Sequence record: PZ379177.1
Length of the DNA stretch: 64,000 nt
Direction: 5' to 3' (one strand)
Source: a phage
Positions 16,526 to 24,945 of this stretch are shown piece after piece; position 1 is the first letter of the stretch, and each line of letters begins with the position of its first letter. The notes beneath the pieces were generated by a model that was given only the letters and a program-made list of their open reading frames with translations, was not told the origin of the DNA and did no database searches. The position numbers and the translations under genes were made by a program.

Positions 16526-17944
16526 TTATTCCCCTTTCAACCAAGCTTCAAATGCTTCGTCAGTTGCTGCAGAATCCGCAGCGGCCTTTTGTTTTGCGAC
16601 TACACGCTGTTTTTGACCGTGTTCAACGCCGCGCAGATAGTTATCCACAACGTCAAACTCAGCACCATCAACGCACTTCAAGCCTAACTTTTTAGCGCCA
16701 TATTTCGCTACGGACTTGGAGTCCATAGTTGCATGATCAAAGGCACCAACAACTTTAGACAGGCGCTGGTAGAGGCTATTCTTACGAGCAGAATCAGCGT
16801 AGAAAGCAGCAACTGCTGAATCAGATGCCATTGAGTGTTCCCCTTTTGCTGGACCTGGCGACGCTTTCGCCGCTTTTGTCGGTTTGTCATCTTTTTCGAC
16901 CGAAGCCCCCTTTACGTTGCTGTTTTGCAGGCCGCTAACCACATCTTCAGCTTTGTCGCAAGGTGATACATCTTCAGCCTTGACTTCAACTTCTTCGTCT
17001 TTGACTTCGGCTTCAACTTCTTCTTCATCACCTACCGCGCCACCTTTCAGTTTTGCAATAAGTGCTTCGATTTGGCTGATCAGTTGCGGAAGCTCGCCAC
17101 CAGCGTGAGATTCAGTTTCAACTTCAAACTTCTCTTCACCTTCTGGAGTCTCTTCAGCTTCTGCTTTGACTTCTGGATCAACCATCACTTCTTCACGTTC
17201 TTCGGTTGAATCCTTCTCTTCTGCTTTCACTTCAACTTCGTCCTGATGAGCAGCTTCGGTGCTCTCTTCATTCAGAAATTGTTCGAGCGCAGGGATCAGT
17301 GATTTCAGCTGTTCAACAGCATTATCACGCGCTTTACCTTTTAACGGTTTTGGCATGTCTAAATCCTCGTTGGATGGTGTTACAGTCGTCAAACAAAGAT
17401 GGTCAAAGCAACGACCATCCAGCACCCGTGCACCTGGTACTCGACCAACGTCCACGAGAGCAATGTGGTTGCCGCGAAGAGTTGTCTGTACCACTTCATA
17501 CGGCTGCCCGTCAAACTCTCCAGACTGTATGATGAATTCACAGTCATAGCCCAAAGACAAGTCAACCTTTCCAGAATCGATGGCTTTCTTCAGACGACGG
17601 CTAAAAACTTTAAGATCGCCGCGCATCCATGGCTTGTCATAATAAACATTGCCAGTTAGAACGCCATCAACGCCATACTCTTCGGGTGCTGTGTTATCCT
17701 CATCACCTTCGAATCCAGAAAGCATTTCGTGATTGTCTATGAAAGGGATATTTTTGAATGAATCTATCGCTTCGGGGTCTTTCACCGCTGACTCTGGGCG
17801 ATAAACTTTTACGATGCGATTCGGATCACCATCAAGTCCAACCTGACCTGCAGAATAATCAAAAATGCCAAATGACGAAATGGGACAACCCACAATCGTC
17901 AAGAATCCATTTTTGTCAATTTCGCGTGCCGTTTGCATTCGCAT
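16526..17944 (-). CDS. Putative prohead protease/scaffolding protein with acidic linker
   Basis: 472 aa. Globular N-terminal region, then a long acidic low-complexity stretch (EEVEVKAEEKDSTEEREEVMVDPEVKAEAEE...) typical of scaffold proteins. First gene after the repeat-rich intergenic region. Start could be the ATG two codons in (17938). Confidence 0.5.
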   Translation of the reverse strand: MRMQTAREIDKNGFLTIVGCPISSFGIFDYSAGQVGLDGDPNRIVKVYRPESAVKDPEAIDSFKNIPFIDNHEMLSGFEGDEDNTAPEEYGVDGVLTGNVYYDKPWMRGDLKVFSRRLKKAIDSGKVDLSLGYDCEFIIQSGEFDGQPYEVVQTTLRGNHIALVDVGRVPGARVLDGRCFDHLCLTTVTPSNEDLDMPKPLKGKARDNAVEQLKSLIPALEQFLNEESTEAAHQDEVEVKAEEKDSTEEREEVMVDPEVKAEAEETPEGEEKFEVETESHAGGELPQLISQIEALIAKLKGGAVGDEEEVEAEVKDEEVEVKAEDVSPCDKAEDVVSGLQNSNVKGASVEKDDKPTKAAKASPGPAKGEHSMASDSAVAAFYADSARKNSLYQRLSKVVGAFDHATMDSKSVAKYGAKKLGLKCVDGAEFDVVDNYLRGVEHGQKQRVVAKQKAAADSAATDEAFEAWLKGE

Positions 17945-18509: not shown

Positions 18510-19430
18510 TTAGTTCAACTTAATTGCGGTGATCTGTCCGTAAACGGTAGATGTCAATGCGTCTGTGCATTGATAGTTTAGATACACGTTGCCAGGCGCG
18601 GCAAGAGTAATTATCTTTGTTGGGATATTGCCGCCGAAACGACCTGCAGCCCGAATGCCAGCTGACATTGTAAATGCATCATCCGTAATATCTGAATTAC
18701 TTGTTGACAGCTTGACTGTAATTCCGGTATTCGCTTGAACTCCTGCTGTCGCGACAGTCAACTGACTTGCTGTCACAAGCCATTTCCCTGCAGGCAGGTT
18801 TAAGGTTGCCAGATTCACCAGAGTTGTCGGAGGATTGCTTACGCTGTTGCTTGCGTTCTGCACAGTGCTTGCAGCAGCATTAAGGACGCCAGAACCATCA
18901 ATTGATAGTGTCGTTCCTACCTTTATGCCACCCAAGGTTGATGCTGATGCAATCGGTAATGAGTATTGAGTCACACTAATTGTACCGTCACCTGCAACGC
19001 TTATGCCACTTCCTATTTTGACGCCGCCAAGAACAGAAGCCGTTGCCGCTGGTAGTGTGTATTGGTTGCTGCTGGATTTGACTACCTTAACGGCGACAGC
19101 ATTCTTGGACCCTCCAGACTCCATGCCTATAATCACTGCTTCTCCAAAAGCGATGGCGATCGTAGATGCAGTTAAACCAGTCTGCACGTCTGTTATGTTC
19201 ATTTTGGGAACTGAAAGTGTCAGATTCGGCTTGCTGGTAGAATCGCCATCATTACCGATCATAAAGAACTGGCCAACTGAATTGTATCCAGACGCCAATG
19301 GCGGACTCAATGGAACAATCAGGTTTTTATCGGATGTGAATTCCGAAACAATCGCCAAACCGTTAGCATATACAGCAGGCAATACTGGCGTTTGTCCAGA
19401 TAGAGGAAACGTGCTGATTGGTATCGTCAT
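18510..19430 (-). CDS. Structural protein with tandem beta-repeats (fibre-like)
   Basis: Track ORF 18510-19499 trimmed to the internal ATG (MTIPISTFPL...), which removes the overlap with the upstream gene ending at 19438. Internal repeat TLPAATASVLGGVKIGSGISVAGDGTISV / SLPIASASTLGGIKVGTTLSIDGSGVLN. Confidence 0.5.
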   Translation of the reverse strand: MTIPISTFPLSGQTPVLPAVYANGLAIVSEFTSDKNLIVPLSPPLASGYNSVGQFFMIGNDGDSTSKPNLTLSVPKMNITDVQTGLTASTIAIAFGEAVIIGMESGGSKNAVAVKVVKSSSNQYTLPAATASVLGGVKIGSGISVAGDGTISVTQYSLPIASASTLGGIKVGTTLSIDGSGVLNAAASTVQNASNSVSNPPTTLVNLATLNLPAGKWLVTASQLTVATAGVQANTGITVKLSTSNSDITDDAFTMSAGIRAAGRFGGNIPTKIITLAAPGNVYLNYQCTDALTSTVYGQITAIKLN

Positions 19431-19437
19431 AATGACC

Positions 19438-20289
19438 TCAAATGATTGGTATTTTTCTGCACTTGCAGTGTATCGCCCATCCAGGAGGACCGATGTCACC
19501 CTTTTTGAACTTCAACTCTCCGCCCACTTCCCATAGACGCTTGTCATCAAGTTTGAATCTCATTCCGTCGACATGTTCATGAGAGATTCGCGGCTCCTTT
19601 CCTGCTCCTGAGTGCGCCCATTCAAATTCTTCAACTCCATTCTGGCGCATCCTTTCATCGCTTAGAACGCAATACAATTTGCTTGTCTGGTCTTTAGCGA
19701 TTAAGTCGACTCTCTTTGCAGAGAAGTGTTTTACGTTTCGCAGCGCCGCCTGAATGCCTGACGTGCCTTGCTGGGCTGGGTCGGGCGAAGTCAGCGAAAG
19801 CATGACTGCTTCGTACACTCTGTTGTGAATATCCTCGCCGACCTTAGTCACTAGAGTCGTGTTAAACGTCTCGCTTGTTCTAAGAGTGTTCTCAACGAAT
19901 TTGTTATATGTGGCCTTTGGCGCTTCTATGCCTGCGGACTTAAGGCTGGCGAATGTAGCAGAAGTAGCACCCTTTTCAACCGACTTGATAAAATCAGCGG
20001 CAATCTTCGACCCAACACGAGCAAACGCCTTTGCCCATTTCAGCTGCAGACGTTTCATAAGAGTTTGGAATGTTGAATCAGCAGAGTCTTGCGCAAAGAA
20101 CTTCTGCACCTGCTTCTTTTCAAGCCACTCTGAAATTCCTGCCTGATAGTCATCAATCATCGCATAGCAAAGACCTTTCATCTCACGACGGTAGGCCATC
20201 GCAATAGCGTTTGATGGGATTATCGGACTGCCGCGCCCGATTCTATCGGGTGAGCGGCGTTCACGTTTTTTCGAAGCTTTAAAAGCCAT
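19438..20289 (-). CDS. Head morphogenesis protein (Mu gpF-like / SPP1 gp7-like)
   Basis: C-terminal signature ...EWAHSGAGKEPRISHEHVDGMRF...GPPGWAIHCKCRKI (PxxHxxCxC). Directly downstream of the portal gene. Start set at ATG 20289 (MAFKASKKRER...). Confidence 0.75.
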   Translation of the reverse strand: MAFKASKKRERRSPDRIGRGSPIIPSNAIAMAYRREMKGLCYAMIDDYQAGISEWLEKKQVQKFFAQDSADSTFQTLMKRLQLKWAKAFARVGSKIAADFIKSVEKGATSATFASLKSAGIEAPKATYNKFVENTLRTSETFNTTLVTKVGEDIHNRVYEAVMLSLTSPDPAQQGTSGIQAALRNVKHFSAKRVDLIAKDQTSKLYCVLSDERMRQNGVEEFEWAHSGAGKEPRISHEHVDGMRFKLDDKRLWEVGGELKFKKGDIGPPGWAIHCKCRKIPII

Positions 20290-20290
20290 A

Positions 20291-22666
20291 TCAACCTTGC
20301 TTCGGTGAATTAGTAGGATTATTGAGTGCTCCGTATGCTTGAGAGCAATCACCCTTCAACCACTCCTTGAATGAGTTCACATCTAATTCGTGGATTGAGT
20401 CGAATCCGTTCCAACCGTTACCAAATGATGCTTGATAAGCTTCTTTCGCTTCTTCTGCTGAATCGAATCCAAGCATACACTTGTGTTCATCAAACTCGCC
20501 AGAGTAGTTATCGTTTTGGTTCACGATAAAGACTTTCGGCGACTTCAGATTTGGACCCACAAAGCAGTCGACTTCATCACCGTCTGCGCCCTTGGTGCCC
20601 TTGATGAATCCGTAGTGGTGCGGCATCTTCACGGCCCATTCACCGTCAAGGCTGTTTCCTCTACGAATGCTGTTTCGCGGATTCTCAATGCCAAGAATCA
20701 TTCCGTGCAACTTCATCTTAGGTAATGATGCTGCGTCCATTTTACCCACGTTGTGGCGTAAGTTGACGACGTGTCCTTTAACGCTTGGAAGGGTAGACGG
20801 TTGCACCGACCGTGAATCTTTTTGAGGGTCAAAATCCACATCCTGACCTTCTTTCAGGTAGTAATCCGCAATACCCTCCAGCCCTTCTTTCAACTGCGTT
20901 AGGACATCAACCTGATGGCTTGATTCATCACCGGTATCGTCCATGTTGATTTCGACAGGCGCTTTGTCAGGGTTTTCCGCCAACTCACCACGCGCAGCAC
21001 CCTCTGGCATAATACCTGTTTCGCTATAGAACTGGCCGCCCATCTTAACGACATCAGCTTTCGCCTGTTCAATATCGGCCTTACCTTGCAGGACTTCACC
21101 AGCAGACTTGCCAAGCAATGCCATATTCTCTGGAGACATCCCTGGGGTTTCTTCTGCTGCGTCTTCCGGCAGACGGTTGTAGCCGCTGTTTTTGTCGTCT
21201 TTGATGCGGTCGCGCTCTTCATCAGGAGAAATGACGCCAGCATCAATAAGAGTTTTGCCAGTGTTGGCTCGCTTATCATTGATTTCTGCAAGTTGAGTAG
21301 CAGTAAGTGAGCCAACTGGTTCCCATGCAACCTTAACATCGACATCCACCCCTTCTGATTTGAGAAGGATTTTGTAATGGCGGTCGAGAATTTTTGTCAG
21401 GTCATGCTGCTGGCACGTTTCCAACTCTTCGTGATAGCTGACCATCTCGAATTCACCAGTGGCGTTAAAGCCTTTTGGCGAAGTCCCAAGCAGTTTGGTC
21501 GACGGAACTTTTGCGATTGCGGCCACAAGCTGGTACTGGTTCATGATGATGCTGTCGAAGTCTGACAAGTTGATGTCAAACTGGTCCATCTCTTCTTTTT
21601 GGCCAAGCACTTTGACTGCATAGTTGTCGCGGTACTTGATCCACATCATCAGACGTTCTGCAAAAGACCGCTCATTGGCAATAGCCTTGTCAACGTCGGT
21701 CCGCAGCGTCGTTGTACGCTTGGACATCGCCAGCAATGGCGCTTCGTTGGCGGTACGTTCAGCGGCATAGATGCGTTCATAAATCTGCTGAGTCAGAGGG
21801 ATGCCGCCGTAAATATAAGTCGGCTTGAGAATATCAGCTGGCTCATCGTTGCGCAAGATTATGAGGTGGCTGCGATGATAACGTTGTCCGCTGATTACCC
21901 AATATTCTGGGTCATAGAAGTGCTGTGATGCAGGGTCTGCCGTGTTTTCAGACGTCAGAAACGGCATCATCCAATAAGGGTCAACCTGAATGATTCCCTT
22001 ATAAGACCCCTTTGTCACACCATCAATGTTAAAAGGCTTGCTGTAATATTCTGGGTCATCGCTACGCACATCAAATATGATGACGCGGATACCAAAAATA
22101 TTTTTGAATCGTTCGGCTTCAACTAAGTGCTCTTTGATATTAAATTCTTTATCAATTTGCTTTAGGCGTTCGCTTGCCTGTACTGACAATTCTGACTCAG
22201 AACTGGATTTGACTTCCCAACCTTTACGGACCGCATCGCGGCCTACCATGGAACACGCCTTGTTCACCAGCCAATGCTGTGCGATGATGGCACAAGCTTG
22301 ATAGCCGATGAATGACTGTGACAGATACCAGTTTTGAAGTTGAATAGGTACTGTGTATGGGTTGACTTGCCCTTCTGAACTGATGTTCTTTAAGGCATTA
22401 TCCATAACCTTTTTGGATACTGTTGCGGAATCGACTGAACGACCTTTTATGATTGCAACACCATCGCCATTAATATCAGGCTCATATAAAGGGAAGTCAT
22501 CAACCGTTTTAAAGGTCGGTCGATTGCTTTCAGTCTTTTCCCAGCGTTGACCGCTGCCGCGCCTTTCAAGGCGTTCAAACGGTGCCAATGGGTCGCCTGG
22601 CGGCATCTCCGCTGGTTCGGCTTCTGGTTGCGTCTTCTCCCAGAGTTTTATGCCAAGAATTTTCAT
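20291..22666 (-). CDS. Portal protein with C-terminal inorganic-pyrophosphatase-like domain
   Basis: Large ORF between terminase and the Mu-F-like gene. Track start is TTG at 22699; ATG at 22666 (MKILGIKLW...) with AGGTGG RBS preferred. C-terminal ~150 aa carries MPHHYGFIKGTKGADGDEVDCFVG, which resembles the pyrophosphatase core [24 protein letters not shown]. Confidence 0.65.
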   Translation of the reverse strand: MKILGIKLWEKTQPEAEPAEMPPGDPLAPFERLERRGSGQRWEKTESNRPTFKTVDDFPLYEPDINGDGVAIIKGRSVDSATVSKKVMDNALKNISSEGQVNPYTVPIQLQNWYLSQSFIGYQACAIIAQHWLVNKACSMVGRDAVRKGWEVKSSSESELSVQASERLKQIDKEFNIKEHLVEAERFKNIFGIRVIIFDVRSDDPEYYSKPFNIDGVTKGSYKGIIQVDPYWMMPFLTSENTADPASQHFYDPEYWVISGQRYHRSHLIILRNDEPADILKPTYIYGGIPLTQQIYERIYAAERTANEAPLLAMSKRTTTLRTDVDKAIANERSFAERLMMWIKYRDNYAVKVLGQKEEMDQFDINLSDFDSIIMNQYQLVAAIAKVPSTKLLGTSPKGFNATGEFEMVSYHEELETCQQHDLTKILDRHYKILLKSEGVDVDVKVAWEPVGSLTATQLAEINDKRANTGKTLIDAGVISPDEERDRIKDDKNSGYNRLPEDAAEETPGMSPENMALLGKSAGEVLQGKADIEQAKADVVKMGGQFYSETGIMPEGAARGELAENPDKAPVEINMDDTGDESSHQVDVLTQLKEGLEGIADYYLKEGQDVDFDPQKDSRSVQPSTLPSVKGHVVNLRHNVGKMDAASLPKMKLHGMILGIENPRNSIRRGNSLDGEWAVKMPHHYGFIKGTKGADGDEVDCFVGPNLKSPKVFIVNQNDNYSGEFDEHKCMLGFDSAEEAKEAYQASFGNGWNGFDSIHELDVNSFKEWLKGDCSQAYGALNNPTNSPKQG

Positions 22667-22828
22667 TGTTAACGCCACCTGACAGTGAAAGGGAATCAAT
22701 CTATATTATAAATATTCATGTGTTTGTAAGCAAATGATATGTATGGTGATCATAAATAGTTCATAAAATATTTTGCTTTTGTATCATTTTGAGTTATATT
22801 TTAGTTAACTAAACGAAAGGAGATTGAA

Positions 22829-23245
22829 ATGAGCACAACAATTGTATTTGTCGTCCTACACAACGGCGAAGTCGTTAACGTATGCGAATATGAAGAAATG
22901 GCAAAGGCCACTGCTGCGAGATACGAAGGTGCTACTATTGACCCGTGGATTTTAGATGCGCGCAGCGTCTTGCAGGCGACTTTAGATGAGTGGTTGTTGG
23001 GTCGCAAGGTCTATCCAGTAGACAACATCGACTCAATTCAAGGCGAAACAGTATACTTTGAAGATGAATGCGTTCGCGGCATCGGCAAATTTATGGGATT
23101 ATGTCCATCTTCATCCAAAAATAAATTTTATCGTATTCAAGTTGAAGAAAACGATATGTTTGACAAAGTCACGCGCTCGATTGTTCCTGGCGGCGGCACT
23201 CCAATCTTTATGGCAGAATCAGACATCAAGGGGATTATCAAATGA
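22829..23245 (+). CDS. Hypothetical protein (opposite-strand insert)
   Basis: 138-aa ORF with strong RBS (AAAGGAGATTGAAATG), convergent with terminase. Confidence 0.55.
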   Translation: MSTTIVFVVLHNGEVVNVCEYEEMAKATAARYEGATIDPWILDARSVLQATLDEWLLGRKVYPVDNIDSIQGETVYFEDECVRGIGKFMGLCPSSSKNKFYRIQVEENDMFDKVTRSIVPGGGTPIFMAESDIKGIIK

Positions 23246-23481
23246 GAACTTTAACCGAACTCGATGTTTTGAAAGATGTTGCAGCCGCGCTGGGCGTTGA
23301 AGTCTCCGAAAAGTCGACACTGGGTGCGTTGCGTCGCGATTTACTCGAAGCCGTCGACCGCAACGATTTTGATCGTAAGTGTTTGCAAAAGAAGATTCGA
23401 CAGGCAGTAAGGGCGGGTAAGCGATTCCGTGCCAGGTCGTTTGCCGCAAGAAAACTCGACCTTCAGCACGGAATGCTTTAA
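23242..23481 (+). CDS. Hypothetical basic protein
   Basis: 79-aa ORF overlapping the upstream stop (ATGA); Arg/Lys-rich C-terminus. Confidence 0.5.
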   Translation: MRTLTELDVLKDVAAALGVEVSEKSTLGALRRDLLEAVDRNDFDRKCLQKKIRQAVRAGKRFRARSFAARKLDLQHGML

Positions 23482-23484
23482 TTG

Positions 23485-24945
23485 TCAAAGGTTAGAGAAG
23501 AAGCCGGATGCTGCAACAATTGGTTTCATCAACGCCATGATTGCTGCGTCCGCTTTGTTAGGCGATTTGACTCCACGCTTTGCCATATCCTTTTTCGATT
23601 CAACTTTAAACTTACCAAGCACAGACGTGTCTTTGCGCGGCGCTGACATCTCAAAAAGAAATGTCTCAATTTCTTCCGCAGACCAAGCAGGAATCCCAAG
23701 TTCTGGAATGCCGTCTGTGTCGATGGAAATCAGCTCATCAGTCGGGTATACGGCCTGCCCTGTTGCATACTCATATGTCTTCCTGAATCGTTCGGCAATC
23801 TCAGTCCATTTTTGCGCTTTTATGTTTGCGAAATGGTCTTTATTGAGTATTTCAACGTGTGGTAACTCAAGGAAGACGTCATCAGGATCATCAACAGCAC
23901 CTTGCGCGTTGAACGCATTAAATTCGATTCTTGGGAATGTTGGATTTTCATGGATTGCATACTCATTAAGCTCATCAAATTTTGAACCAGCAAATGCACC
24001 AACACCGATGGCGTCATAGGTAATTGATGCGCCGAATGTTAATGCATCTTTCCAAACTCCGCTTGCGGACTTAAGCAATTCATCTTCCAGACCTTCCCAT
24101 GTCTTGATGCCGCGCAATACGTTGCCCGTGACAAATGCTGTGGCGTTTAAGTCGTCGCCGTCGTCTGCCACGTCAAAGCCTATGCGGTTAGACCCTGACA
24201 AGCTCCATCCCAGCGTAGGGTGTTTGTGTAGGTTTAGCGCGGCCTTGACGAATGCACGGTTTATGACAGACTTGTCGCCGCCTGTCTTCGGTACTCCGCC
24301 ATAAACGTGTTCTGCCTTTTTCGGGTCGCGCTCATACATGCCAGCAATAACGTCCAGCATTGTTTGCGACAAGAATGGATTGTCCTGCCAGTTAATCTTC
24401 TTAACGATGGCGTTCTTCGGCGGTCGCATGACAAAGTTCTGGTAGACGAAATCAGCCTCTTCATCAGGGTTAAATATGATCCATATTTCGGACCCTTCCT
24501 TACGAATTGTCGGCTCAATAATGTCCCACTGCTCTTCAGTCAGCGCGTGCGCTTCCTCAAGCCAAAGAACATCAACGCCTTCTGTTGATTTGATTTCGTC
24601 AACGTTGCGTGCAATACCGTAAAATAAAAATTCAGATTTTGTTCTTTTGTGTTCAATAGAGTTCTTTAATAAGTTGAACTCGTCTTTAAAATCAGAAATC
24701 TCTATTTTGTCTTTTAATAGCGTATATACTGATTCAGAAATCTTGTTCTGGAATTGTCGGACGCAAAGGAATTTTAATTTAAAGTTTGCCGCCAAATAAA
24801 TAGCAAAACCAGCGGCATCATGCGATTTGGAAGATGCACGACCGCCGTATATTACTTTGTATCGCGCTTTCGTCTTCCAGACTTCTCTTAAAGCAGGATT
24901 CAACTGGTACATGACTTTCCAATTATGTGTTAATATTTTATTCAT
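23485..24945 (-). CDS. terL: Terminase large subunit
   Basis: 486 aa. N-terminal Walker A-like VIYGGRASSKSHD, Walker B-like VLWLEEAH, C-terminal acidic nuclease-type region GFDVADDGDD. Adjacent to portal. Confidence 0.9.
   Translation of the reverse strand: MNKILTHNWKVMYQLNPALREVWKTKARYKVIYGGRASSKSHDAAGFAIYLAANFKLKFLCVRQFQNKISESVYTLLKDKIEISDFKDEFNLLKNSIEHKRTKSEFLFYGIARNVDEIKSTEGVDVLWLEEAHALTEEQWDIIEPTIRKEGSEIWIIFNPDEEADFVYQNFVMRPPKNAIVKKINWQDNPFLSQTMLDVIAGMYERDPKKAEHVYGGVPKTGGDKSVINRAFVKAALNLHKHPTLGWSLSGSNRIGFDVADDGDDLNATAFVTGNVLRGIKTWEGLEDELLKSASGVWKDALTFGASITYDAIGVGAFAGSKFDELNEYAIHENPTFPRIEFNAFNAQGAVDDPDDVFLELPHVEILNKDHFANIKAQKWTEIAERFRKTYEYATGQAVYPTDELISIDTDGIPELGIPAWSAEEIETFLFEMSAPRKDTSVLGKFKVESKKDMAKRGVKSPNKADAAIMALMKPIVAASGFFSNL

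Follow-up and report, generated by a model that had tools for sequence, protein, structure and literature searches.

A predicted pyrophosphatase-related domain at the C-terminus of a Wifcevirus portal protein

The phage DNA of record PZ379177.1, a stretch of 64,000 nt here called the window, carries on its minus strand a gene for a head portal protein whose C-terminal part had been likened, in a preliminary description made from the letters alone, to inorganic pyrophosphatase. Our analysis bears this observation out: to judge from the comparisons below, one gene almost certainly encodes both a portal protein and a C-terminal pyrophosphatase-related domain, InPase. Such a portal-InPase fusion is not novel, as it was already described by Iyer, Burroughs, Anand, de Souza and Aravind (J Bacteriol 2017, PMC5512222), who defined the InPase clade in "polyvalent proteins" and reported the fusion in the BcepF1 orthologue (BcepF1.124). 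As to its role, we favour, at a probability of roughly 0.55, the reading that InPase is an encapsidated enzyme cargo, held on the end of the portal that faces the capsid interior and probably released and ejected early.

Portal body and InPase in one reading frame

Only two significant Pfam matches were found in the protein, to PF06381 and to PF18823 (Table 1). The latter (E 3.1e-46; 157 bits against a cut-off of 26.8) covers model positions 12-135 of 135, so that the pyrophosphatase homology, first proposed without any database search, was recovered by a profile search. In addition, phrog_4660 ("minor head protein") matches the protein from end to end. Both strings quoted in the preliminary description are present in the translation of the open reading frame (ORF), MPHHYGFIKGTKGADGDEVDCFVG at 20555..20626 and GEFDEHKCML at 20471..20500, and the span it assigned to the domain (20291-20760) encloses InPase (20354..20722). 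Its residue numbers are shifted by +11 relative to the 791-aa protein, TTG 22699 having been taken as the start; counted mechanically from that codon, the ORF (20291..22699, minus strand) has 802 aa. We place the start codon at ATG 22666 and not at TTG 22699. The codon equivalent to this ATG is annotated as the start in phage Mansfield, and a ribosome-binding site is annotated there at the place equivalent to the Shine-Dalgarno-like sequence of the window.

At least 80% of the protein lies in one frame in 351 phage records, and PF06381 and PF18823 occur together in 120 of the 120 best homologues (48-100% identity) from a collection of 5.8 billion proteins. When orthologues from seven groups were aligned (Wifcevirus, Kylevirus, Bcepfunavirus, Myosmarvirus, Carpasinavirus, Pbunavirus and Luteibacter phage Pluto), conservation was seen in the portal body and in InPase but not in the linker between them. 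Mean identity to the window protein over 56 homologues is 66% in the portal body, 24% in the linker and 62% in InPase. Within Wifcevirus, the ratio of nonsynonymous to synonymous substitution rates (dN/dS) is 0.011-0.019 for the InPase segment and 0.006-0.010 for the portal body. The InPase domain is thus under strong purifying selection and is conserved like an enzyme.

These data bear on the possibility, which we regard as very improbable, that the extension is an artefact, either a downstream gene (separate or joined through a frameshift) or a nested one read from an internal start. In-frame Met codons do occur just before the InPase domain, at residues 631, 639 and 644 (791-aa numbering). 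However, no good Shine-Dalgarno sequence precedes them, and Pa193, whose 765-aa protein was deposited full length, does not have them; moreover, the next gene begins 1 nt after the portal stop, and the linker, variable in length as it is, remains in frame in every case. A frameshift or a separate gene, the outcome that would have undone the earlier observation, is ruled out by the unbroken frame in all orthologues together with purifying selection in that frame. A nested gene was rejected on the lack of a convincing Shine-Dalgarno sequence at the Met codons and on their absence from Pa193. Scans for promoters and terminators in this region gave background levels.

A full-length AlphaFold model (AF2), built from a 57-sequence alignment, consists of the portal body, a helix at residues 512-550, disorder at 551-579, a second helix at 581-603, disorder at 621-633 and a compact beta-rich domain at 650-771, the last predicted with confidence. 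Predicted local distance difference test scores (pLDDT) are below 50 in the two disordered stretches, 72-89 for helix 581-603 and above 90 in the InPase core. A conserved PGMSPEN motif lies near the predicted helix 512-550. The linker noted earlier after the portal body is present, although its composition differs from that first given: described as Ala/Glu/Gly-rich, it is acidic and rich in Gly, Val, Asp and Glu, with a net charge of -12 over residues 521-640. Among homologues its length varies between 115 and 165 aa. The helix at residues 581-603 (window 20855-20923, minus strand) has an amphipathic L..L...L..I.D....EG.D pattern that is conserved in seven phage genera; docking, protease recognition and packing on the InPase domain are possible roles for it.

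Table 1. Coordinates of the portal-InPase gene, its parts and neighbouring head genes in the 64,000-nt window
Feature	Position	Strand	Details
Portal-InPase fusion gene	20291..22666	minus	791 aa, 88.6 kDa; ATG start; TGA stop at 20293-20291
Shine-Dalgarno-like AGGTGG	22675..22680	minus	8 nt upstream of ATG 22666; putative, from reading of the sequence
Portal body, Pfam PF06381 Phage_portal_3	21263..22303	minus	residues 122-468 of 791; E 3.5e-88
Predicted long helix	21017..21133	minus	residues 512-550; AF2, low confidence; would prolong the C-terminal barrel seen in E217 and Pa193
Variable acidic linker	20723..21016	minus	residues 551-648; mostly disordered; one conserved amphipathic helix at about 581-603
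InPase domain, Pfam PF18823	20354..20722	minus	residues 649-771 of 791 (660-782 of the 802-aa ORF); diverged family I pyrophosphatase OB-fold
Core motif HHYGFIKGTKGADGDEVDCFVG	20555..20620	minus	Y685, D695, D697, D700 align with E. coli pyrophosphatase Y55, D65, D67, D70 (hhalign)
FDEHK motif	20480..20494	minus	D726, E727, K729, putative counterparts of E. coli E101/D102, K104; near-invariant in 166 sequences
IENP motif	20678..20689	minus	E661, putative counterpart of E. coli E20 (IEIP); E661 in 162 of 166 sequences
MuF / SPP1 gp7-like head morphogenesis gene	19438..20289	minus	283 aa; Pfam PF04233, phrog_324
Head-fibre-like ORF	18510-19499	minus	weak Pfam Phage_head_fibr match (E 3e-6); repeat-like Ser/Gly/Ile region; "head fiber protein" in phage WFH
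DUF2213-type maturation protease/scaffold (DUF2213/Pa193_gp24-type)	16526..17944		2.3 kb downstream of portal
Terminase large subunit	23485..24945		upstream of portal

Likeness to family I pyrophosphatases and distribution of the fusion

A Foldseek search of the PDB yielded family I pyrophosphatases (PPases) in all of the top 50 places, in line with the fold first suggested. The InPase domain forms, in the model, an OB-fold barrel with a C-terminal helix, as in these enzymes. By sequence, PPases of the PDB match at only E 0.01-1, and identity of the domain to family I PPases (E. coli Ppa; PF00719) is 12-21%. E. coli Ppa is a free hexameric enzyme, whereas InPase is here a fused domain.

The proposed correspondence of the DGDxxD cluster to E. 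coli PPase D65/D67/D70 was reproduced by hhalign, in an alignment to E. coli Ppa (identical in sequence to PDB 4um4_A) that covered 28 columns around DGDxxD. An hmmsearch alignment reached further only for the PPase of H. pylori. Judging by position, and with the support of the H. pylori alignment, E661, E727 or D726, and K729 are the likely counterparts of E20, D102 and K104; Y744 likewise is, by position, the likely counterpart of E. coli Y141. The assignment of FDEHK was made by strand position and not by superposition, and its positional match to the MDEK segment of H. pylori PPase is one column off.

To gauge conservation, 166 InPase domains of very different architectures were collected from the best 150 representatives of 50%-identity clusters. 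Residues conserved in at least 95% of them are E661, R668, G670, G675, W677, Y685, G686, D695, D700, G704, Q717, D726, E727, K729, G733, A740 and Y744. The figure rises to at least 97% for E661, R668, Y685, D695, D700, D726, E727, K729 and Y744, and is 92% for D697. The four acidic metal-binding residues given for the clade by Iyer et al. are present in the window protein (D695, D697, D700 and D726/E727; 92-100% conserved).

Clustered at 50% identity, the PF18823 family comprises 11,263 clusters at E <= 1e-3, and 9,362 when E <= 1e-10 is required. Proteins of 2000-6400 aa hold many of its members, and phage contexts include a 2307-aa polyvalent protein, a ParB-like protein and a 282-aa protein encoded between capsid and sheath genes. 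The InPase domains of polyvalent proteins are about 50% identical to the portal-fused form and share its conserved residues; they differ in sitting in multi-domain proteins, whereas in the window the portal is the sole partner. Most of these polyvalent domains are preceded by an A-G-N-Y-K-K-G-H motif, in place of which the portal-fused form has ..LPKMK.. upstream of residue 650 (alignment of the 166 domains).

The fusion itself had been thought an unusual virion component. In fact a large clade of phages shares it, and it was known before this analysis from the 2017 publication and from annotations in public records. It occurs in Pbunavirus (E217, Pa193), BcepF1, Kyle, MyoSmar and others. The record of gp083 of Serratia phage MyoSmar carries the note "IPR008162 … Inorganic pyrophosphatase family", the portal of Luteibacter phage Pluto is named "inorganic pyrophosphatase" in its record, and several viral proteins in UniProt are named "Inorganic pyrophosphatase domain-containing protein". 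BcepF1 gp124 (YP_001039808.1), 52.6% identical over 96%, has the same order of portal, linker and InPase and the same downstream MuF gene; it differs in its longer C-terminal tail (862 aa) and in the host genus of its phage, with no difference in kind. A search of the literature after 2017 on InPase or portal pyrophosphatases returned nothing beyond Iyer et al. and related surveys of the Aravind group.

InPase as a possible cargo of the virion

The closest solved structures are those of Pbunavirus gp19 (E217, PDB 8fvh; Pa193, PDB 9b41), which is 52% identical to the window protein over the full length and 57% in InPase, and lies in a head-gene region of the same synteny. The window portal matches 9b41 (E 7e-251) and 8fvh (E 1e-189), and this homology shows the portal to be a dodecamer with its C-terminus facing the capsid interior. 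In the two cryo-electron microscopy studies, residues 97-528 (E217 gp19) and 94-528 (Pa193 gp19) of 765 were modelled; no density was present for residues 529-765 in either map, and a pyrophosphatase is not mentioned in either structure paper. The C-terminal barrel projects into the head and interacts with DNA, being ordered only when DNA is present (head full). The missing density of residues 529-765 is consistent with a flexible tether. In virion proteomics of another Pbunavirus, SCUT-S1, the 84.5-kDa portal was detected at 59% coverage by whole-lane digestion, with no peptide positions or size given; the E217 paper contains no mass spectrometry.

Under the cargo reading, twelve InPase domains would lie inside the head on flexible, acidic and DNA-repelling tethers of about 100 residues, each domain being predicted to be a Mg2+-dependent phosphoanhydride hydrolase. 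With some 100 residues, a tether extends to at most about 350-400 A, too short for a tail of about 1300-1500 A, so that action in the host would require release and ejection. The cut would most plausibly be made by the DUF2213-type prohead protease, after which InPase would be ejected with the DNA. In the host it might hydrolyse inorganic pyrophosphate (PPi), to the benefit of early transcription and replication, or else a pyrophosphate-containing nucleotide with which the host responds to infection. Both options for the substrate, PPi and a pyrophosphate-containing nucleotide, as well as injection of the portal-InPase fusion, were proposed by Iyer et al. (2017; PMC5512222). The nucleotide is considered as an alternative to PPi because the substrate-binding half of the site is altered.

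Two further comparisons argue for a cargo. One is the occurrence of InPase in giant virion polyvalent proteins and in phage structural modules. The other is provided by five metagenomic portal homologues in which a C-terminal PF03496 ADP-ribosyltransferase (ART) exotoxin domain is added after InPase (for example P0178, 1321 aa; triple fusions are L011:6001-9966, on a Logan ERR14146702 contig, P0184, P0020, P0233 and P0263). In these, the portal and InPase are followed by about 250-375 aa of spacer and then by PF03496, with the synteny of terminase large subunit (TerL), portal, MuF and protease kept. Neither the 375-aa spacer nor the 142-aa ORF directly downstream of the triple fusion has a Pfam match. 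We take the PF03496 extensions as support for the cargo reading, by their parallel to Alt of phage T4, an ADP-ribosyltransferase that is packaged, processed by a protease and injected. T4 Alt and the MuF-effector fusions have in common with InPase the concept of an enzyme carried in the head and delivered with the DNA, and some portal-InPase relatives carry an ART as well. Alt is, however, unrelated to InPase in sequence, and its processing and injection have been demonstrated, whereas for InPase they are only proposed.

Several observations weigh against the view of InPase as a delivered pyrophosphatase. The classical family I profile, PF00719, aligns 25 residues of the same DGDxxD stretch at 17.9-20.9 bits, below its cut-off of 23.5. 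The spacing between E661 and Y685 is 24 residues, 11 shorter than the 35 between E20 and Y55 in E. coli; comparison with the E. coli sequence reveals no clear counterpart of K29, E31 or R43, R668 and W677 being invariant; and an invariant Gln (Q717) occupies the position expected for D97. The shortened spacing is consistent with deletion of the beta-hairpin that lies between core strands one and two. The clade was defined as lacking one beta-hairpin of the solved PPases and having four acidic metal-binding residues (PMC5512222). On these sequence features the domain is assigned to PF18823 and not to the classical family I PPases, and true specificity for PPi appears doubtful because the K29 and R43 counterparts are missing, Q717 stands at the D97 position and the E661-Y685 stretch is shorter. 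A search of the literature found no published activity assay or genetics for any PF18823 member and no reported cleavage or ejection of InPase, the mass spectrometry data giving no C-terminal peptide positions. Furthermore, we know of no portal that sheds domains into the host, nor of a cleavage specificity for the DUF2213 protease; a linker site of the LxE type cut by the T4 prohead protease was considered and is, for this reason, not claimed.

Alternatively, InPase could stay attached and work inside the particle, as a plug, a spacer, an organiser of the DNA end, a pressure-sensing mass or an enzyme of the procapsid or capsid only, without ever being delivered. We consider this possible though rather unlikely. 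The interior location of the C-terminus would suit it, as would a barrel that contacts DNA and folds only when the head is full, the lack of reported cleavage and the conserved amphipathic helix held in the linker; in addition, OB-folds, to which the PPase fold belongs, are frequent binders of nucleic acids (established knowledge; also PMC5512222). Yet thousands of homologues that are not attached to portals keep the acidic, Lys and Tyr residues of catalytic type nearly invariant, which argues for chemistry and not bulk. Nor is any ordered InPase density seen in two high-resolution maps, an acidic metal site would bind DNA poorly, and the ART-toxin extension in relatives would make no sense for a purely internal structural function.

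It is also conceivable that InPase has its effect ahead of assembly, in the producer cell, where free portal subunits would remove PPi or a nucleotide late in infection, and that its encapsidation is incidental. The protein is expressed late, removal of PPi favours polymerase reactions (PMC5512222) and Wifceviruses have been reported as unusually fast replicators. Against these stand the low copy number of the portal, the abundance and efficiency of host PPase (established knowledge) and the consistent fusion of phage PF18823 domains to proteins packaged in the virion (portal, polyvalent and structural-module proteins) and not to replication genes. We judge a role of this kind to be improbable.

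Finally, a more specific form of delivery can be envisaged, in which InPase is a pre-loaded counter-defence enzyme that is clipped by the protease, enters with the first DNA and destroys a pyrophosphate-linked immune or stress signal before the defences fire. We hold this to be unlikely. Candidate signals would be, for example, ADP-ribose-derived molecules of the Thoeris type, the alarmones (p)ppGpp and (p)ppApp, or nucleotide precursors of cyclic-oligonucleotide signalling. If it were true, the shortened pocket (no K29/R43 hairpin, Gln for D97) would be an adaptation from PPi to a bulkier nucleotide, and the portal C-terminus would be a general slot for cargo, occupied in some relatives by an ADP-ribosyltransferase as well.

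The phage, its head genes and significance

The protein is 99.8% identical in amino acids to its orthologues in ECML-117, WFH, Ro157lw and ManiWeber/Bas99, and the surrounding 15 kb is 93-97% identical in DNA to those Wifcevirus genomes. By this relatedness the phage belongs to Wifcevirus, a genus of E. coli/Shigella myoviruses. The head module has the order TerL, portal, MuF-like, head-fibre-like, DUF2213-type maturation protease/scaffold, cement protein and major capsid protein. The portal TGA and the MuF-like ATG (20289) are one base apart (TGAtATG, window 20287-20293, minus strand), which suggests translational coupling of the two genes. This arrangement recurs in Mansfield, Kyle, BcepF1, MyoSmar, Pa193 and Pluto.

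Between terminase and portal, the opposite strand carries a pair of small genes (window 22829-23481, plus strand) that encode 138 aa and 79 aa and overlap by 4 nt. This pair breaks the otherwise co-oriented head module, and the annotation of phage Mansfield shows the same layout. GC content is uniform along the window (43-49%), and, judged from the GC skew, the orientation of genes changes near 28 kb and near 34 kb. ARAGORN found no tRNA or tmRNA gene in the 64,000 nt.

As a discovery, the fusion adds little to what had been published. Its value is as a pointer to a very common phage domain that sits on the portal of therapeutically used phages, the same fusion being present in Pbunavirus phages employed in Pseudomonas phage therapy. 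Were the substrate found for a single tractable member, for instance that of an E. coli Wifcevirus now available from the BASEL collection, this would shed light on a large class of polyvalent proteins of phages and plasmids.

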